DNA of 64,000 nt from a virus (lineage: Duplodnaviria; Caudoviricetes), in IMG/VR virus record IMGVR_UViG_3300037455_001046, positions 7,901-71,900 of that record; one strand, given 5' to 3'. The notes under the pieces are model-generated. The model was not told the DNA's origin, ran no database searches, and saw only the letters and a list, made by a program, of their open reading frames with translations. The position numbers were made by a program, and so were the translations under genes. Shown piece after piece: positions 3,001 to 51,357 of this stretch; the stretch's first letter is position 1; every line of letters begins with the position of its first letter.

Positions 3001-6000
3001 GTAAACGAGGCCAGTCGTCTTTGGCTCGACTCACTGGATAAGGGCGAGATGAACTACAACAAACTCGCAGGAGAGGTAGAAGCCCGCAATGTGGAGAAGC
3101 GCTCGAGGATGACCGAGGAAGAGCGCCGCAACACCCCTCCGTCCGAGACCGAGGACGTAGCCCGCGAAGAGCAGGGGGTGAGGTTCTCCGTCTCCGCCGG
3201 GAGGGTGGCGCGCGAGAATAACGCCGTCTTCGATGGGAAGCGGTTCTTCAGCGGGAGCGTAAACCTCAAGAATGGCAAGATTGAGGAGACGCATACCTAC
3301 GAAGATGCAAAGGAAGATGATTTTGGGACGGGATATTTCTCGAAAGGCCAGCAAGACAAGATGGAGTCGGGAGAGTCCTCGTCCTTCTACATCGATGAGG
3401 ATGGGAAACCTCGCAATGGAGATGGAGAAGAATTCTCGCCGGATATTGAGGAGGCGATTCTCAAGCAGGTATATCCCTCCGTTCTTGAAAACAGAGTCAT
3501 CTATAATGGCGCTCCAATCTATGCCGGCAGCATCAATGTCAAGGATGGTGCTATTGAGGAGACCCACTCCTATGAAGATGCGGAAAGGAGCGACTTCGAT
3601 AATTATTTCTCGCCGGAGCAGGAGGAAAAGATAGATAGCGGCGACAATGTCATTTTCTGGATTGATGAGAATGGCATTCACTTCCAGGGCGACATCACCG
3701 AAGAGGAGAAAGAGCGCCTGACGGAGGAAATCAGGAATCAGGTGTTCTCTATTCGGACGACACCGGTCGATGAGAGCAATGAAATCCGGTTCAGCATCCG
3801 CGAGGGCGAGCCGCCGAAGAAGACCGGAATCGGCTACAAGGTGTTCTACCAGAAAGATGGCAAACTGTATCCGCCGATGGTCGCCAATGCAGGCGGCGTT
3901 GACACTCCTGTCGGTGTTTGGCTCGATGCGGAAGCCGCTCCTATCGTCGGCGAGTCGAAGACCGGCCGGCCGAAGGTGAAGCAGGGCGGAAAAGGCACGC
4001 AGGGTGGCAGCGGCACGCTCGCATATCGCCCCGGCTGGCATCTCGGCGAGATCCCGTATGCGCTCCAGTTCAACCGCATCAACCCGGAGACCGGAAAGAA
4101 GGAGCTCTTCCCGAAGGATTTCGTGTGGGCAGAGGTTGAATACGCGATGGATAACGACTACCAGCAGGAGGCCGAGGCCGAAGGTATGACCGAGGGCGGC
4201 AAGTTCCGCCACTCATATGCCGGCCTGAAGCGCGTCCCTGAGAACGGCTACTATCGCTACCGCACAAACCCGAATCCGGAGACCGATCCCTGGATCATCA
4301 CGGGCGCGATGAAGGTCAACCGCATCCTCTCCAACGAGGAGGTCGACGACCTGGTGCGGCAGGCCGGAAGGGAGCCGCAACAGAGAGAGGGGGATGTCCG
4401 CTTCTCCATCGCTAACGATACATCCGATGAATCTAAAATCGCGGAAGGAATTGTCAGCAGCTACGATAACCAAGACGGCTCCGAACAGTACCCTTGGGTC
4501 GATAACGGGGAACTCGTCGACAGGATAGAGAAGGAACTCCCGTACGGAGTAAAGACGAAGCCTATCTTCGCCAAGATAGATGAGTACCGTAGGCTGGATG
4601 AAGAAGATTTCAACGAAGGCCGCAGGGATTTCTCGGGCGGGGAAAAGGAAGAATTGTTCAACGAGATCTTGTCAGACTTGCAATCGCTCGCCAGAAACGA
4701 TACCGGGCGGGGTGGAGACCTCCGCTTCTCCGTCGCCAACGCCAACCAGGAGGTCTTCGTGAGCAACGCCCAGCGCGCCGTGGAGAACATCCGCCAGGAG
4801 AAGGCGACGCCGGAGCAGTGGCTGAAGATGATCGAGAAGGGCGGCGGCATGAAGGCCGGCGAAGACAAGTGGCTGGGTCTCTCCGACTGGCTGAAGGGCC
4901 AGGACAAGAAGAGCATCACCAAGCAGGAGATTCTCGACTACATTGGGGAGAACAAGATTATCATCGAGGAGACAAGGTATACCGGAAACCTCAGGGATGA
5001 GATACAGGAGCATATTGGGCAAGGAAGAAGCCTCTCCGAACTCCAAAGCGAGATTGATGAAATACGCGCCTCGGAGGAGTATAAAGGTCTTGCCGGAGAC
5101 AGGATTGATTCGGATCTCCTGACAGAGGTTATGATTGACCGCTACGGCGATGATTTCGAGATGGGTTACATCATTGATGAGGAGGGTATGATTGATTACG
5201 ACATCGATGTGTATGCGGATCGAGAGTATCAGGAGAATTATACTGGGAAATCCAAGCCGATTAATTTTGTTCGTAGAGGATACACCACCGAAGGTCTCGA
5301 GAACAACGCGGAAATTGCCTTGACAGTCCCGACCATTGAACCGTGGAATGAGCAAGATGATATCCACTTCGGCGATGCCGGCGGTGGCAGAGCAATCGCG
5401 TGGGTGAGGTTCGGCGACGCCTTTACTGGCGAGGAAAAGTACGATAGCGGTTTGCTCGGCAATGCCGAAGAGGCGCGGAAATCTATGGATGAGTACACCT
5501 CCGAATTGATGAAGAAATATGGGTTAAGTCGGCTCAACCAACTTGACTCCGCAATTTCCAAGGAGGAGAGAGACAAGATGCGCCGCCTCCAAAAGAACTA
5601 TACCCGGGCTTCCTGGCATGCCGGCGAATCCAGGCAGGTCAGCAATGAGAAGAAAGTCCTCTTCATCGACGAGATCCAGAGCAAGCGGCATCAGGAGGCG
5701 AGAGAGATGGGATGGTATAAGGGAGATGCGGAATATACGCGAAAACTTGAAGAGCTCCGCAATGAAAGAATGGCAGCATCAAGAGAATTGGATTCCGCTG
5801 TCGCGCAGATTTCCAAGGAATATGATGAACCATTATCTCGCACTTGGAACAGTCTTGTATACCCTCTCCGTTCGGACACTACCGAAAAAACAAAGAGATT
5901 GAGGGAGAAAGAAGCCCGTCGGAAATATGGAGACGAAACTTATGAAAGAATCGTAGAGCTTGAGAGGAAAGACGGCGATTTGGCGCAACGGCTTGCAAAC

Positions 6001-9000
6001 CTTATCGGCAAAAACGAGGACGGCGTCCCCGCCGCCCCCTTCGAGAAGAACTGGGCCGAGCTGTCGATGAAGCGGATGCTCCGCTACGCCGCCGAGAACG
6101 GCTACGACTATGTGGCCTGGACGACGGGAGAGCAGCAGGCGGAGAGATATAGCCTCGGAGAGGTTTTGTCTTCAGTAGACAAGACGGGCGACAATGATTA
6201 CACCCTGTACCTTACGAACGGAAAATCGACTGATATTGTTGTTGACGACGAGGGCGTCATTACGGGGACGGATGCCTTCAGCGAGGAATGGGGAGGTAAG
6301 CGGCTTTCGGAGGTAGTCGGAAAGGATCTCGCCGTTAAGATGATGTCAATGGAAGTCGATAGCGACGATCTTGAACATATCGATTCGAGAATCGGCGGCG
6401 AGGGCATGAAGGGCTTCTACGACGAGATTCTGCCCCGCTTCATGAACAAGTACGGCAAGCAGTGGGGTGTGAAGGTGGAAGACATCACGCTGCCCGATCT
6501 CGGATACGGCGGTATTACCGCCCACTCCGTTCCCGTCAACGAGGCGATGAAGGAGTCCGTGATGGAAGGCCAGCTGATGTTCTCGGTGTCCCAGCAGGAA
6601 CAGACTGACCGCGAGCGCCTGATCGACGCCGCCGAAAACGGCGGCCTGAAGGCCGTCATCGGCCCGGAGAATGTCGAGGACATCTACCGCGAGGCCTATG
6701 CCTCCATCCCCCAGAGCGCCCTGAAACCCATCGTGGAGAAAGGGCTCGCCGAGGGTGGCGACATCATGGGCCAGCTGCGAGTGTATCTGCACGACCTTGC
6801 GCTGAACGGCACGGAGAACGACGGCACGGGCCTCCTGTTCAAGCTCTTCGAGGACATCCGATACATGTCGAACAACCCTGCACTCACGGACAACGACATC
6901 CGCTGGATGCTCTGGAAGGAGACGTGGAGCGAAGACCCCGACAGCATCCTCGCCATCGCGGCCAACCGCGCCATGAGAAACCGCTGGGGCGTCGGCGAGC
7001 CGCCCGTGGAGCAGGATTTCAAGGAAGCTGCGGAAGACGCGCAGAAAGCGGCCGCAGAGCGCGTGGAAACGGCGAAAAACGACCTGAAAGAGGAGAAGAA
7101 AGGCCTCTACGGGCCGCTGGATTCCATCGCGAAGGCCATGGCCGCGCAGAAGACCTACGACAAGGCGACCGTGGACAGCATCGTCCGCTTCGCCAAGGAC
7201 ATCCTCAAGGGCGGAAACGTCAGCGAACTGAGCCGCAGAGAGGTGTCCCGGCTGCTCTCGCTCATCAACACCAGCACGGGCAAGAGCCCGAAGCAGGCCT
7301 CGCGCTATGCAGACCAGCTGGTGGAGATGCTCCTGAACCATATCGCCGAGGAGGAGAAGAAGAAATTCGAGAAACTCGTCAAGGTGAAGGCCAGCAAGGT
7401 CAAGGACAGCGGCGTCGAGGTGCAGGGCAAGCTCGACCTCGTCGGCCAGGCCGTCATCAAGGCCTTCCGCGAGAACATGGGCAGCCCCGTGGAGGACATC
7501 CGCACCCGCCTCGAGGAGGTGTCCGACCAAATCACCAGCGAGGACGACGCCGTCCGCGAGGGTGCCCTGGCCGAATACAGCGGCCTGATGCTGGCTCTCC
7601 AGTACAAGGAGGACATCGCGGAGAACATCGAGGAATACAAGGATCTCAAGAAGGAATTCGACGCCACCGGCGTGAAACTCGCCGACGTCATCGGGCGCAA
7701 GGCCTACGAAGAGTTCGTCAAGGAGTCGCGAGACGCCCTCCGCAAGAACCTGATGGAGCGCATTGATATGTATCGCGACCTCTCGAAGCGGCTGACCGAC
7801 ATCATCACGGGCAGCGCAGAGGCCGCCGCGGCCTTCCGCAAGGCCGAGCAGCAGCGCGTGGAGGAGATCCACCACGATGCGAACCGCGACATGAAGGGAA
7901 CGCCGTCGAACGAGCATCTGCGCGAGAATGCCTGGCAGCGGTTCCTGAACTCCGACTTCATCCGTTTCTTCTTCAAGTCGCTGTCCACGGCAGACCAGAT
8001 GTTCCGCCTCCTGGGCCGCAAGAGCGTGACCGGAGAGGGCTATCTCTTCAACCGCTTCATCAAGAACGGCTTCATCCCGGCCAGCGAGAAAGCCTCGCGC
8101 GGCATCCTCGAAGCCACGCAGATCCTCGACAAGAAGGTCAGCGAGGTATTCGGCAAGAAGGGGATGAGGTGGAGCGACCTGTACAAGGAGTCTCGCAAGA
8201 AGGGCGGCGAGGTGGAATTCCTCGACGGCGGCGAGATGAAGACGCACGACCTGACGCAGGGCAACCTCCTCTACATCTATATGGCCAACAAGATGCCGGA
8301 CGGCAAGATGAAGCTCCGCAAGATGGGCATCGGCGAGGACACCGTGGAGGAGATCAAGAAGAACCTCGACCCTCGCTTCATAGAGCTGGCCGACTGGCTC
8401 CAGGATGAGTTCTATGTGAACCTCCGCAACAAGTACAACGCCGTCCACGAACGGATGTTCGGTGCGCCGATGGCCGCCATCGAGGACTACGTCCCGTTGA
8501 AGATCCTGGCCAACGCCCGATTCGAGGACGTAGACCTCGGCGCGCAGACGCAGGGAGAGATGTCGTCCACCATCACGGGCAGCATCATCAAGCGCCGCAA
8601 GAACTCCCTCGCGCTGGACATCATGCACACCGACGCCTTCTCCCTGGCCATCGAGCACATCGAGCAGATGGAGGACTGGGCGGCCTTCGCCGAGCTCCGC
8701 CGCGATATGAACACCCTGCTTTCGTACAAGCACTTCCGCAACCAGGTGATGAATATGGACACCGTCTACGGCAGCGGCCGGACGCTCTGGAGTAACTTCT
8801 CCGACGCCTGCACCGTGCTGGTGGGCAAGTACCAGCCGAAGGTGAAGAAGGGTGACATCGACACCATTGCGCTGAACGTGGCCAAGGGCGTAACGGCTGC
8901 GAAGATCTCGTTCCGCGTGAACACCGCCCTCAAGCAGCTGCTCTCGTTCCCGGCGTATTTCTCGGATGCCCGCCCCGATCTCCTCGCGGCGAGCATCGGG

Positions 9001-47288: not shown

Positions 47289-47990
47289 ATGGAATGGAAA
47301 TACACCAAGGAGAACCCTCTCCGCGTGGTCACCCTCTGCTCCGGCTATGATAGCCAGCTGATGGCGATCCGCAACCTGGGCATCCCCTATGAGTGCGTCG
47401 GCTGGTCGGAGATCGACACCTACGCCATCCGCGCCCACAACGCCGTGTTCCCCGAACTCGCGGGAAAGAACCTCGGCGACATGACCAAGATAGACTGGGA
47501 CCTCGTCGATGACTTCGACCTCCTGTTCTACTCCACGCCCTGCACCGACTTTTCCAACGCGGGCAAGCAGGCAGGCGGAGAGGAGGGGAGCGGAACGCGC
47601 TCCTCGATCCTCTGGTGGACGCGCTACGCCGTCCAGAAGAAGAAGCCGAAATACCTCATCATGGAGAACGTCAAGGCGCTGGTCAGCGACAAATTCCGTC
47701 CGCTCTTCCACAAGTGGTGCGATGAGCTTCAATCTTACGGTTACACGAACTTCGCCCAGGTGCTGAACGCAAAGGACTACGGCATCCCGCAGAACAGGGA
47801 GCGCATCTTCGTGGTTTCCATCCTCGGCGACGCCTGGTTCAACTTCCCCCAGCCGTTCCCGCTCAAGCTCCGGCTCAAGGACATGCTGGAGGAGAAGGTC
47901 GACGAGAAATACTATCTCCCTCAGGACAAGGTAGACCAGTTCATCGAGCAGCTCGACGATGAAAAGAAGGCTCTCATCGAGGCCGATTAA
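47289..47990 (+). CDS. dcm: C5-cytosine DNA methyltransferase, N-terminal catalytic half (motifs I-VIII)
   Basis: LCSGYDSQ (motif I variant), STPCTDFS (IV), MENVKAL (VI), IPQNRERIF (VIII); stops before the TRD and motifs IX-X. Confidence 0.92.
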   Translation: MEWKYTKENPLRVVTLCSGYDSQLMAIRNLGIPYECVGWSEIDTYAIRAHNAVFPELAGKNLGDMTKIDWDLVDDFDLLFYSTPCTDFSNAGKQAGGEEGSGTRSSILWWTRYAVQKKKPKYLIMENVKALVSDKFRPLFHKWCDELQSYGYTNFAQVLNAKDYGIPQNRERIFVVSILGDAWFNFPQPFPLKLRLKDMLEEKVDEKYYLPQDKVDQFIEQLDDEKKALIEAD

Positions 47991-50528
47991 CACCACCCCG
48001 TCCGGCATGGCTTACGGGATCAAGGCGAACTATTTCAAGAACGCAAGCCTGACGACCCTCACAGGGGGGGGGGCATCACTTCCCCTGTACCGGCGTGATG
48101 GAGATTTATGAAGACGACTCCCCTCAACACGGACATTGACGGCAACGCCTCCACCATCCTGGCGGGATACTACAAGTACGGCGTGGCGACCTTGATGCTC
48201 GGCAACTACGGAACGAGCGGAACAATAATCCTTGAGGCATATGAAAGCCCTATCGGCGCGGAATCCGCAGAAGAACTACGGCAGGGCTGAGTGGAGCGAC
48301 ATCGCCGCCACCCTGCTGGCAACGGACTACAAAGCCCCCCCCCTGTGCCTGATCTATGAAGATTGTACCAATCAACACGACGGCTGACGGCTGCGCGTTC
48401 GCGATACGGACTGGGTATGAGCGCCACGCCTACCTCAATGGGATGACTCGGGGGGGGGGGCTTCTATCCGGCAACGGGAGTCCTGGAGGTCGAGGACGAT
48501 ACTCAACGCCTGTGCGGATGGGACTTGCAAGACGATATTCGCCCGGCTGGGACGGCTGAGTTGGGAGAACTACCTCGGTAGGCTGGAACACGGCGGCTGG
48601 GATTGCCAAATGACCTGCATTCTTGAAACCTATGAAGATTGACGACACCATCCTGAAGGTCCGATTTACGCGAAACCGTATCGAGGGAATCCTGAACTAT
48701 CCGTACATATTTCTCCCTCATACACCCTCCCGCCCATGTGTCTTCGACTCGTTCCACGGCACAATCGGATTCTACATTTTCCCTTTCGCAGTAACCACGC
48801 GGATCAACGCCAGCAACCAAGTATTCCTGAAGGTCTATGAAGACGTGGATGATCCCGCTCAAGGGCAAGGGGCATGAGGTCACGGCGCGGAACATCGCGC
48901 TGGGGGAGCCTATGGAACTCGCCCGGCCCTTGACCACGGACGAATGGGACAACGCATTGCTATATGAGAAACAAGAGGCTGATGTGGGTCACGGAGAAGG
49001 CCTTTAGGATGCGATTAGGGGGGGGGGCAGTACGAACTCGACGGATACAACCAGCAGGTGCTGACAGACGGGGTATCCTACGCCATCACGACCCGCACCT
49101 TCGGCGACAACAACCATTTCCTGCTGGAGGTAGATGAATGACTCGATAAGAATCCGCCAGGCCACGAAGAGGGGCTACATTGAAGTTCCACGGGGGGGGT
49201 GTTCGACGGGTCGTACCTTACAAGCAAGACACGCAGGGGCAGATACCAGAACGGCCTCTGCCCGACGCTGACCGCCGGGGAGCCGGAGATATACTACTAT
49301 GAAGGAATCGAAGAAGCCTGAAGGCCTGTGGTACAACGGGCGCTTCTGCCCGGTCTGGAGTTCGCTCCATTGGAATGCCACAACGGGCTTCTATAGGGGG
49401 GGGCTTAAAGACCTCGCGAGGGCATGCAAATGCGATGACTCGCTTGCAGTCGTAGTTGAATATGACACCGAAACTGATACGGATAGGTAACATTTACGGA
49501 TCACAATACGGCCCCTCATTCGCCGGCAATGTCTATAATCCGTCAGGCTTATCCCCGGCGATAATGACTATGCAGGGGGGGGGCAGAGAACCGATGATAG
49601 CGACCTATGAGGACGGACGAGACGATATGCCTCAACAGCAAGGTTGACGGGAAGCAGCCATCTCTTGCCGATCGGATATACTACGGGGGGGGGTGTATGA
49701 CGGCGATCACTACCGGCTGGCATCAGTATGTGCTTTATGAAGAAGATAATGGTCCGATACCCTCACGGGTACTATAGGGGGGGGGCATGGGAGAACGAGT
49801 ATTCACCGACCCTGACCACATCCGCCTGGGAGTTCAACAACTATGTCCTTGAGATTGATTGCCACGATGGTGATGACGCGGGAGCGGAGCGAGGAGGAGA
49901 AACGCCGTAGGCATCTCCACGGAGACCGCGGCGCGAAGTTCAGCAAGGGAAAGATTCCAAAGCTCGCCCCCCCCCCATATCATAGGAACGATAACCACTT
50001 TCATCACGAAGGACATCCTGATAGCGGAGATATATGATGATCGGTAACATCTACCCATCGAACGGCCAGAACGGCGAGATACACACCACGGGCGACTGCT
50101 CCCCGGCAATCATATCCGGGCAGGGCGTAAAGGGCAGAGGCATCGGAAGCTGCAACGCGCCGAAGATCATCCTATACGACGACTACAACCACAAGATTGC
50201 CCCCCCCTATGGGTCGGTACGGTAGTCCAGAACTTCGGCCGGTCCGCCTGGCGCAACGGCTGGAAACTGATAGAGATCTATGAAGGCGATGCAGAGGGTG
50301 GGCGACAGGGATAAGACCTGCTGGAGCGTCAAGGACATCGCGTTCACGATAACCGCCAACGCCCAGAGCAAGGTTCAGCTGATAGTTGACTATGAAACCG
50401 CAGATAATCCCGATCGGGATGATATGGAAGAGTGAGGCCAACGGCTGGGTGTATCATAGGGGGGGGGGCTCTCCCCGACCCTGTGCTGCGGCGCGCATAA
50501 CGGAGTACAACCAAAGATTAATGACAAT
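47959..50528 (+). other. Array of about 17 TRD-like mini-ORF cassettes between the two methyltransferase halves
   Basis: Cassette starts at 47959, 48108, 48241, 48356, (~48490, no ATG), 48632, 48837, 48964, 49134, 49299, 49462, 49607, 49737, ~49843, 50034, 50280 and 50392. Modules resemble C5-MTase variable-region units (IGNIY..G.VY...G.SP.I; RQATKRGY...KTRRGR...CPTL), most ending [ILV]xYE. Confidence 0.75.
48064..50468. repeat. Twelve poly-G/poly-C homopolymer tracts (8-11 nt)
   Basis: G10 48064, C9 48335, G11 48450, G10 49018, G8 49192, G8 49396, G9 49575, G9 49685, G9 49777, C10 49967, C8 50200, G10 50459. Confidence 0.9.
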
Positions 50529-50807
50529 ATGGCAAAGATTTATCGTATCAGGAAGCTCACTCCGCGCGAGTGCGGAAGACTTATGGGATGCAGTGATGCG
50601 GACCTTGATAGAATGATCCGCTACCCCTATCGGCCTGATGAAAACGGAGAGTGGACTCTACCGAAAGGCGTAGATGAACAGATGGCAAAAAAGATGAGAA
50701 TAAGTGAATCTCAACTTTATAAATGTTTCGGGAATAGCATTGTCGTTCAAGTCCTTGAAGGGATTTTCACTCAATTACTGAGGGCCGATGGAGACTGCCT
50801 TTTTTGA
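50529..50807 (+). CDS. C5-cytosine DNA methyltransferase, C-terminal part (motifs IX-X)
   Basis: RIRKLTPRECGRLMG (IX) and QLYKCFGNSIVVQVL (X). The same frame extends upstream to the G10 tract at 50459. Confidence 0.85.
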   Translation: MAKIYRIRKLTPRECGRLMGCSDADLDRMIRYPYRPDENGEWTLPKGVDEQMAKKMRISESQLYKCFGNSIVVQVLEGIFTQLLRADGDCLF

Positions 50808-51357
50808 AGAATGGAAAGACATAGCCGGTTTTGAGGGGGTATATCAGGTATCTACCCTCGGACGTGTCCGCTCATGTGATAGATACCTCCGAGCATGCCA
50901 CGGAGGCAGACAGTTTAAAAAAGGACAAATAATAAGTCCCAAACGAATGCGGAACGGCTACTTTACCGTCGGTCTAAGTTATAACGGTAGGGTTAAGCGC
51001 ATGTATATTCATAGGCTTGTGGCAACGGTTTTCTTGTCTAATCCGAATTCCTATCCAGAAATAAACCACAGGGATGAGGATAAAGGGAATAACCGCTTTG
51101 ACAACCTGGAATGGTGTTCTCATAGGTACAACATCAATTATGGTACGACCGCGAAGAGAATAAGCATATCCCACCTCAATGGTGGATATGGGAAAAAACC
51201 AGTTGCGCAGCTCAAAGATGGGGTAGAAGTCGCCAGATACGATAGCGCCGCAGATGCATCAAGAGCAACGGGCATTGACGCCTCCGCGATCCGAAAGGTA
51301 TGTTTATCTAAGGAAAAGCACAACACGGCTGGCGGGTTCAGGTGGGTCTCCGTTTAG
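50788..51357 (+). mobile_element. NUMOD4-HNH-NUMOD1 free-standing homing endonuclease
   Basis: EEWKDIAGFEGVYQVSTLGRVRS (NUMOD4), IHRLVA...NHRDEDKGNNRFDNLEWC (HNH), YDSAADASRATG (NUMOD1); low GC. Confidence 0.88.

Follow-up and report, generated by a model that had tools for sequence, protein, structure and literature searches.

A split C5 DNA methyltransferase with a row of separately startable target-recognition modules, a likely phase-variable and multispecific anti-restriction methylase of a temperate phage

The two methyltransferase halves and the modules between them

The locus described here occupies positions 47289-50807 of the window, the whole 64-kb stretch of DNA that was analysed. 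The window comes from a virus record of IMG/VR (IMGVR_UViG_3300037455_001046) that is 71.9 kb long and has a rating of complete. The locus encodes a C5 DNA methyltransferase in two halves, an N-half with the conserved motifs I-VIII and a C-half with motifs IX-X. The 2.5 kb between the halves consist of short coding units in rotating frames, in which three-frame translation compared with related loci distinguishes 18 modules (U1 to U18) that resemble target-recognition domains (TRDs). The first-pass annotation of this DNA had placed motifs I-VIII in 47289-47990 and motifs IX-X in 50529-50807, and the Pfam and M.HhaI matches given below bear this out. The same annotation described a chain of about 17 TRD-like units; the array and its TRD likeness are upheld by alignments with in-line TRDs, and the count is corrected to 18. 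The features of the locus are listed below (aa, amino acids; G or C with a number, a run of that many bases), and related loci in other genomes are designated by L numbers.

47289-47990, + strand: N-half open reading frame (ORF), 233 aa, with C5-methyltransferase motifs I-VIII and a short helix past KYYL; stop codon TAA
47959-48139, + strand: U1 minigene, frame interrupted by G10 (48064-48073); 59 aa if the run were G9
48108-48290, + strand: U2 minigene, 60 aa, in frame, without a run
48241-48387, + strand: U3 minigene, 48 aa, with C9 (48335-48343), in frame
48356-48581, + strand: U4 minigene, broken at G11 (48450-48460); G10 would join U4a and U4b into 74 aa
About 48499-48642, + strand: U5 module that has no start codon; upstream, its frame stays open as far as the run of U4
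48632-48877, + strand: U6 minigene, in frame, without a run
48837-49007, + strand: U7 minigene, 56 aa, in frame, without a run
48964-49141, + strand: U8 minigene, frame interrupted by G10 (49018-49027); 58 aa if the run were G9
49134-49321, + strand: U9 minigene, frame interrupted by G8 (49192-49199); 62 aa if the run were G9
49299-49490, + strand: U10 minigene, 63 aa, with G8 (49396-49403), in frame
49462-49647, + strand: U11 minigene, 61 aa, with G9 (49575-49583), in frame
49607-49777, + strand: U12 minigene, 56 aa, with G9 (49685-49693), in frame
49737-49910, + strand: U13 minigene, 57 aa, with G9 (49777-49785), in frame
49873-50047, + strand: U14 minigene, frame interrupted by C10 (49967-49976); 57 aa if the run were C9
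50034-50314, + strand: U15 minigene, continuing in frame into U16 (50181-50314), which has no ATG
50280-50435, + strand: U17 minigene, 51 aa, in frame, without a run
50392-50528, + strand: U18 terminal module, put off the C-half frame at G10 (50459-50468)
50529-50807, + strand: C-half ORF, 92 aa, with motifs IX-X; family-conserved Met start just ahead of YRIRKLT

The N-half matches positions 2-214 of the Pfam family PF00145 (E 5e-46), and residues 10-210 of M.HhaI align with it (E 1.5e-25). The catalytic Pro-Cys (TPC), ENV and QNRER are all readable in its translation and are invariant in the alignment of the N-half family. The TAA stop codon is placed about 20 residues past the KYYL motif, in the proximal variable region, and the stop is conserved, the length being 233-239 aa in nearly all of the best 120 protein clusters. 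The family comprises at least 120 protein clusters with this truncated core of about 233 aa, one of which is annotated from a Bacteroidales metagenome-assembled genome (MAG). By carrying motifs I-VIII and ending in the variable region, the N-half has the constitution of an M.AquI-type alpha chain. The C-half matches positions 273-323 of PF00145 (E 3e-7), and the segments RKLT..EC and GNS.VV are invariant across its family alignment. The Met before YRIRKLT is present in 8 of 10 family loci and is absent from the single-chain relatives. L007 has its C-half in an ORF of its own, with no fused TRD, and this ORF begins at a junction as any module does. A single polypeptide containing the core, a TRD and motifs IX-X is not encoded in the window, since the TAA closes the N-half and the modules lie in other frames.

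Natural C5-methyltransferases made of two chains include M.AquI and M.EcoHK31I, and fragment complementation has been reported for M.SssI, M.HhaI and M.BspRI; the fragments of M.SssI complement each other when the enzyme is cut in the proximal variable region (PMC3404938). The split core of the phage therefore has precedent, as the proximal variable region, in which its N-half stops, is a place where C5 enzymes tolerate artificial splitting (PMC3404938). At the other end of the locus, a homing-endonuclease-like gene with NUMOD4 and HNH_3 domains (50788-51357) overlaps the last 20 nucleotides (nt) of the C-half ORF. This gene is not conserved at that position in related loci, for example L012 and L040.

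The identity of the modules is indicated by distant phages (L015, L017, L020 and L021) that have uninterrupted C5-methyltransferase ORFs with several TRDs. U3, U9 and U11 align with the in-line TRD segments located between motifs VIII and IX of these enzymes; U3 matches those of L015, L017 and L021, and L017, L020, L021 and L067 have a U9-type TRD in line with their motif IX and fused to it. In other phages, TRDs of the U9, U10, U14, U16 and U18 types are joined directly to motifs IX-X; in L004 the terminal TRD, fused with the C-half, is of the U10 type. Three peptide motifs quoted in the first reading of this DNA are all present. IGNIYGSQYG sits in frame in U11 (49462-49647), RQATKRGY...CPTL crosses the frame break at the G8 at 49192, and YDDYNHKI...WKLIE crosses the frame break at the C8 at 50200. 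Single modules gave no match against Pfam, and U11 searched against the PDB sequences gave chance-level matches alone (E 0.3 or worse).

The modules might also encode mini-proteins that are independent of the methylase, such as decoys that bind DNA or proteins that inhibit the restriction enzymes of the host. They are indeed separately startable and small, with acidic tails. On the other hand, they are homologous to in-line TRDs of intact methyltransferases, they are always located between the core halves, and the same types occur fused to motifs IX-X, all of which makes an independent function highly improbable.

Junctions and homopolymer runs of the array

A start codon (ATG) is found in 16 of the 18 modules, the minigenes, and is missing from U5 and U16. 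The module starts read ATGA in 16 of 16 cases, with a T at position -1 (TATGA) in 13 of them, and the junction is used in all three frames. In the upstream frame it encodes a hydrophobic strand end and a Tyr or Asp, then a Glu or Asp that closes the previous module; in the +1 frame it encodes Met, with Lys as the usual next residue; the third frame has a TGA stop there. In the 11 arrays that were scored, T occupies position -1 in 80 of 109 candidate starts, and the upstream T at -3, -9 and -12 across loci fits hydrophobic codons. There are 7 copies of the heptamer TATGAAG in the array, a density about 34-fold that of the rest of the + strand. At none of the 16 ATGA junctions is a homopolymer involved in the change of frame. 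No long repeats or inverted repeats that could act as recombination sites were present in the array, where the runs and the junction of about 8 nt alone recur. A scan for sigma-70 promoters and terminators inside the array gave chance-level results, with no terminator on the + strand.

The 64-kb window contains 12 G/C homopolymers of at least 8 bases, all within 48064-50468 (2.4 kb) and none elsewhere. These are nine G runs and three C runs of 8-11 bases, and they fall on Gly-Gly-Gly or Pro-Pro codons of ten modules. Outside the array, 0 of 25 Gly-Gly-Gly tripeptides are encoded by a G run, and GGG accounts for 12% of the Gly codons. The runs of the array are thus a special codon choice, because Gly-Gly-Gly elsewhere in the window is never built from a G run. 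As in the contingency loci based on simple sequence repeats (SSR), the tract lies within the coding sequence and its length fixes the frame, here by setting whether the two halves of the module share it. As assembled, five of the 12 runs are in frame (C9 at 48335, G8 at 49396 and the G9 runs at 49575, 49685 and 49777), and the other seven break the frame, each being mended by one base more or less. Homologues of two broken modules are intact: that of U1 in L012 (6850-7065), with mixed Gly codons, and that of U8 in L001, in frame with G9 at 4870. U16 is broken at C8 (50200-50207), and C9 would produce a 93-aa product with two TRDs from U15-U16. In U18, a run of G11 or G8 would give a 138-aa product with the TRD and motifs IX and X, like the beta chain of M.AquI. 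For 8 of the 12 runs one of the wrong phases ends exactly on the next ATGA, and other wrong phases often stop within a few dozen bases of the next start.

The G11 of U4 (48356-48642) resembles a three-way switch. G10 corresponds to U4a+U4b and G11 to a 67-aa dead end, whereas G12 or G9 joins U4a, through a 16-aa linker, to the ATG-less U5 (95 aa). The homologue of U5 lacks an ATG in L003 too and has its own ATG in L001 and L007.

Tandem TRDs in a phage enzyme are known from the multispecific C5-methyltransferases of Bacillus phages studied in the Trautner laboratory (M.SPRI, M.Phi3TI, M.Rho11sI and M.H2I), which are orphan enzymes with an anti-restriction role. These SPR-type enzymes contain three to five independent tandem TRDs between motifs VIII and IX, each responsible for one specificity. 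The present locus is likewise phage-borne and has its tandem TRDs, as 18 modules, between motifs VIII and IX, and its relative L015 has the single-ORF form. It differs in the split core, in the number of modules (about 18 versus three to five) and in that nearly every module is a reading frame with its own start, most of them with a hypermutable run; the TRDs and the core are not covalently joined in one chain.

An alternative explanation is a recoded polyprotein, in which run slippage and a +1 shift at each TAT-GAA junction would stitch together an SPR-like enzyme. The shift at the junctions is always +1, G runs of 9-11 bases could slip in transcription, the distant relatives are single-ORF multi-TRD enzymes (L015), and in-frame fusions do exist (U15-U16 in the window and one pair in L004). 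However, the junction has neither a slippery site nor a pausing codon, the next zero-frame codon being an ordinary GAA, and tRNA-Tyr on UAU would be unable to re-pair on AUG. The N-half TAA is conserved and has no preceding run by which the stop could be bypassed, and the ATG retained at the junctions is needless for a shift site. Moreover, about 16 successive low-efficiency shifts would result in a negligible yield. A polyprotein of this kind is, in our judgement, improbable.

Conservation and variation in related phages

The layout is common to 11 IMG/VR phages, with an N-half identity of 64-92% in amino acids and about 65-83% in nucleotides, and it is also present in a Bacteroidia MAG prophage (L062). 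A Lachnospiraceae MAG prophage (L067:5380-7600) contains the split core, the minigene chain and six G9 runs, and the design therefore crosses host phyla. In the same prophage a (GACA)10 repeat is found at 8340, about 750 nt downstream of the C-half. The architecture is conserved, whereas the order and content of the cassettes vary among related loci; L056/L057, L058 and L059 have an identical N-half protein and differing cassette sets. A conserved architecture with variable cassette order had been proposed as a check in the first-pass annotation, and both were found in the related genomes. That annotation had also held that homologues in the form of single intact ORFs would speak against a functional split; the close homologues are split. 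In L012 the minigene chain is kept with zero runs and mixed Gly codons, which indicates that splitting and switching are separable features.

In comparison with homologues, the differences at third codon positions dominate in every unit, both halves of the broken modules included. The counts at first, second and third positions are 12/8/48 for U1b, 21/11/60 for U8b and 27/7/44 for U14b, with some bias in that the pairs were picked by protein similarity.

Other arrangements were observed elsewhere. In L017 (6650-6900), L020 (6380-6440) and L021 (6560-6600), more distant phage relatives with an N-half identity of 40-46%, pentanucleotide repeats encoding NRTEQ or RQTD lie at the hinge past the N-half helix and may shift the frame at the same place. 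A single ORF in L014 (4015-5100) has motifs IX-X ahead of motifs I-VIII and looks like a circularly permuted C5-methyltransferase. In a close relative (L040 and L041, 8133-8615 in both), a Mom-like gene with a weak match to PF25680 lies directly downstream of the array, which hints at a second DNA-modification function in the same module.

Between near-identical phages from different samples the lengths of the runs are the main difference, and such variation is typical of SSR contingency loci. L045 and L046, which come from different samples, have C7 versus C8 as their sole difference in 1524 nt. L048, L049 and L050 show zero substitutions in up to 2.7 kb and differ in the length of two G runs, one being G9, G9 and G10, respectively, and the other, at a contig end, G16 versus G14. 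Among L051, L052 and L053, 8 of 12 runs differ in length, whereas the 2.7 kb compared contain 12 substitutions. Two further sets of near-identical loci show no difference in run length. In the 11 scored arrays, 32 of 88 runs are in frame, about one third, which is the expectation under free phase drift. Among the contigs that end inside an array, 13 of 21 end at most 56 nt from a run; this fits mixed populations, but also sequencing trouble at homopolymers. The G runs at contig ends inside the arrays of L002, L048 and L049 (G17, G16 and G14) are either extreme alleles or assembly artefacts.

The frame breaks could be ascribed to a decaying pseudogene of a multispecific methyltransferase, or to homopolymer errors of sequencing or assembly in an intact gene. 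In the assembly seven of the 12 runs do break the frame, sequencing is prone to errors at homopolymers, and runs are where many contigs break. Nevertheless, the layout is kept in diverged phages and in two host phyla, at least 120 clusters have the same truncated N-half, the third-position drift is seen on both sides of the breaks and some near-identical phages differ in run length only, which argues against decay or assembly error. In addition, the 16 ATGA frame changes occur without a homopolymer, L012 has the split chain entirely without runs and the other genes of the window are free of runs and breaks of this kind. Decay or error is hardly credible as the origin of the locus.

The variable cassettes bear on another explanation, that of a silent-cassette library. 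In this case the N-half and the terminal TRD with motifs IX-X would form an M.AquI-like enzyme, and the internal modules would be an unexpressed store to be recombined into the terminal slot, in analogy with pilE/pilS and vlsE. The last module alone is ever joined to motifs IX-X, five TRD types of the window sit in the terminal fused position in other phages, the same N-half protein is accompanied by different cassette sets (L056/L057, L058 and L059), and we know of no three-piece C5-methyltransferase. In contrast to the donor cassettes of the pilE/pilS type, which are untranslated and have no start codons, 16 of 18 modules start at a conserved ATG. The internal modules keep this ATG, with ATGA at 16 of 16 junctions and a third-frame TGA, and carry their own length-variable runs; an unexpressed store needs neither the starts nor the runs. 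The shared junction of about 8 nt is too short for ordinary homologous exchange. Furthermore, the C-half of L007 stands alone without a fused TRD, and the terminal run of the window puts U18 out of frame with the C-half, as do the homologous runs of L001, L003 and L009. In-frame fusions of the terminal TRD with the C-half are present in L004 and L053 and absent from L007. Taken together, a silent store is unlikely.

A probable modular methylase with switchable specificities

The reading that we favour, and hold to be fairly likely, is that the locus is a phase-variable, modular and multispecific anti-restriction methylase of a temperate phage of rumen or gut Bacteroidia. Judged from the sequences and their comparison, the 12 G/C runs probably switch modules on and off, and sibling phages could carry different protective methylation patterns.

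The locus would be transcribed as one unit, which the absence of a + strand terminator-like site would weakly support. Because wrong phases end on or near the next ATGA, translation could restart at the next module. Whatever the phase of a run, ribosomes would finish near the next start, so that the minigenes would be translationally coupled, and each run would switch its own module only. Such coupling would suit a host that does not use Shine-Dalgarno sites. Slipped-strand changes in replication, and possibly transcriptional slippage, would alter the run lengths. The progeny genomes would then each have their own subset of working TRDs and their own set of methylated sequences. The benefit would be a form of hedging, in that methylation protects the phage from Type II restriction by the host but exposes it to restriction that depends on methylation. 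The internal TRD peptides would dock as exchangeable subunits on the N-half and the free C-half, which is the least certain step, whereas the in-phase terminal TRD and C-half would form an M.AquI-like beta subunit. Docking in trans is favoured since it gives a use to the starts, to the stops in the third frame, to the separate switch of each module and to the free C-half, which would all lack one otherwise.

A more specific form of this mechanism is put forward only tentatively. A constant split core may accept in trans, in the manner of Type I systems, any of about 18 separately translated TRD subunits of 45-75 aa, each gated by its own G/C run, with the triple-coded junctions making the switches independent. 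If trans subunits with independent switches are true, one phage locus would give rise to thousands of methylome states.

Several observations weigh against a phase-variable modular methylase. To our knowledge, a C5-methyltransferase in three pieces has no precedent. The AlphaFold2 prediction of U11 alone, from a 13-row alignment, gave a predicted local distance difference test (pLDDT) score of 47.4 and a predicted template modelling (pTM) score of 0.18, that is, no predicted fold. U5 and U16 have no start codon of their own. A conserved Shine-Dalgarno site ahead of the module starts was not found, SD-like motifs being present at about 6 of 16. No run differs in length within L040/L041/L042 nor within L043/L044, sets that possibly come from the same sample. 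The proneness of homopolymers to sequencing error means that some of the length calls and contig breaks could be technical, and the choice of pairs in the codon-position comparison carries the bias mentioned above.

In relation to known systems, the likeness to M.AquI and M.EcoHK31I lies in motifs I-VIII on one chain and, when the terminal run is in phase, a TRD with motifs IX-X on another. These enzymes have one fixed TRD on two chains, whereas the phage locus has many alternative TRD genes, a C-half able to stand alone (L007) and phase switches. SSR contingency loci are described in bacterial methyltransferase genes, namely in the phasevarions (Type III mod and Type I hsdS/hsdM) and in the poly-G phasome of Campylobacter (PMC6321876). 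The phage locus shares with the phasevarions the homopolymer within the coding sequence, the length that toggles the frame and the length polymorphism between near-identical genomes. Phasevarions switch one whole bacterial enzyme on or off, or choose among few alleles, whereas here up to a dozen switches are located in one phage locus, one per C5 specificity module. Exchangeable specificity modules apart from the catalytic subunit, and the combinatorial diversity that results, are also found in the HsdS shufflons and invertons of Type I restriction-modification systems. Those systems act on N6-adenine as HsdM2S and are diversified by recombinase-driven DNA inversion; the phage locus has a row of alternative minigenes with frame switches.

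A search of the literature brought up no account of a locus like this one. Phage methylases with several specificities, C5 enzymes in two pieces and phase variation driven by repeats are known separately, and their combination would be new. In the first-pass annotation the locus was interpreted as a two-piece catalytic core with many TRD peptides that would be supplied in trans or recombined in. This interpretation is partly supported, in that the split core, the TRD homologues and the conserved architecture with variable cassettes hold. It did not include the two features that most distinguish the mechanism, namely the switches formed by homopolymers and the ATGA junction with its triple coding.

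If the favoured reading is true, the locus is a counter-defence that diversifies the phage epigenome within a single burst, and some of the progeny would escape both methylation-sensitive and methylation-dependent restriction. If the modules act in trans, they would be a set of exchangeable domains, provided by nature and very small, that read DNA sequence for cytosine methylation, which would be relevant to the builders of targeted methylation tools. With at least 120 core clusters and with its occurrence in rumen or gut Bacteroidia and in Lachnospiraceae prophages, the family could shape the host range of phages in these communities.

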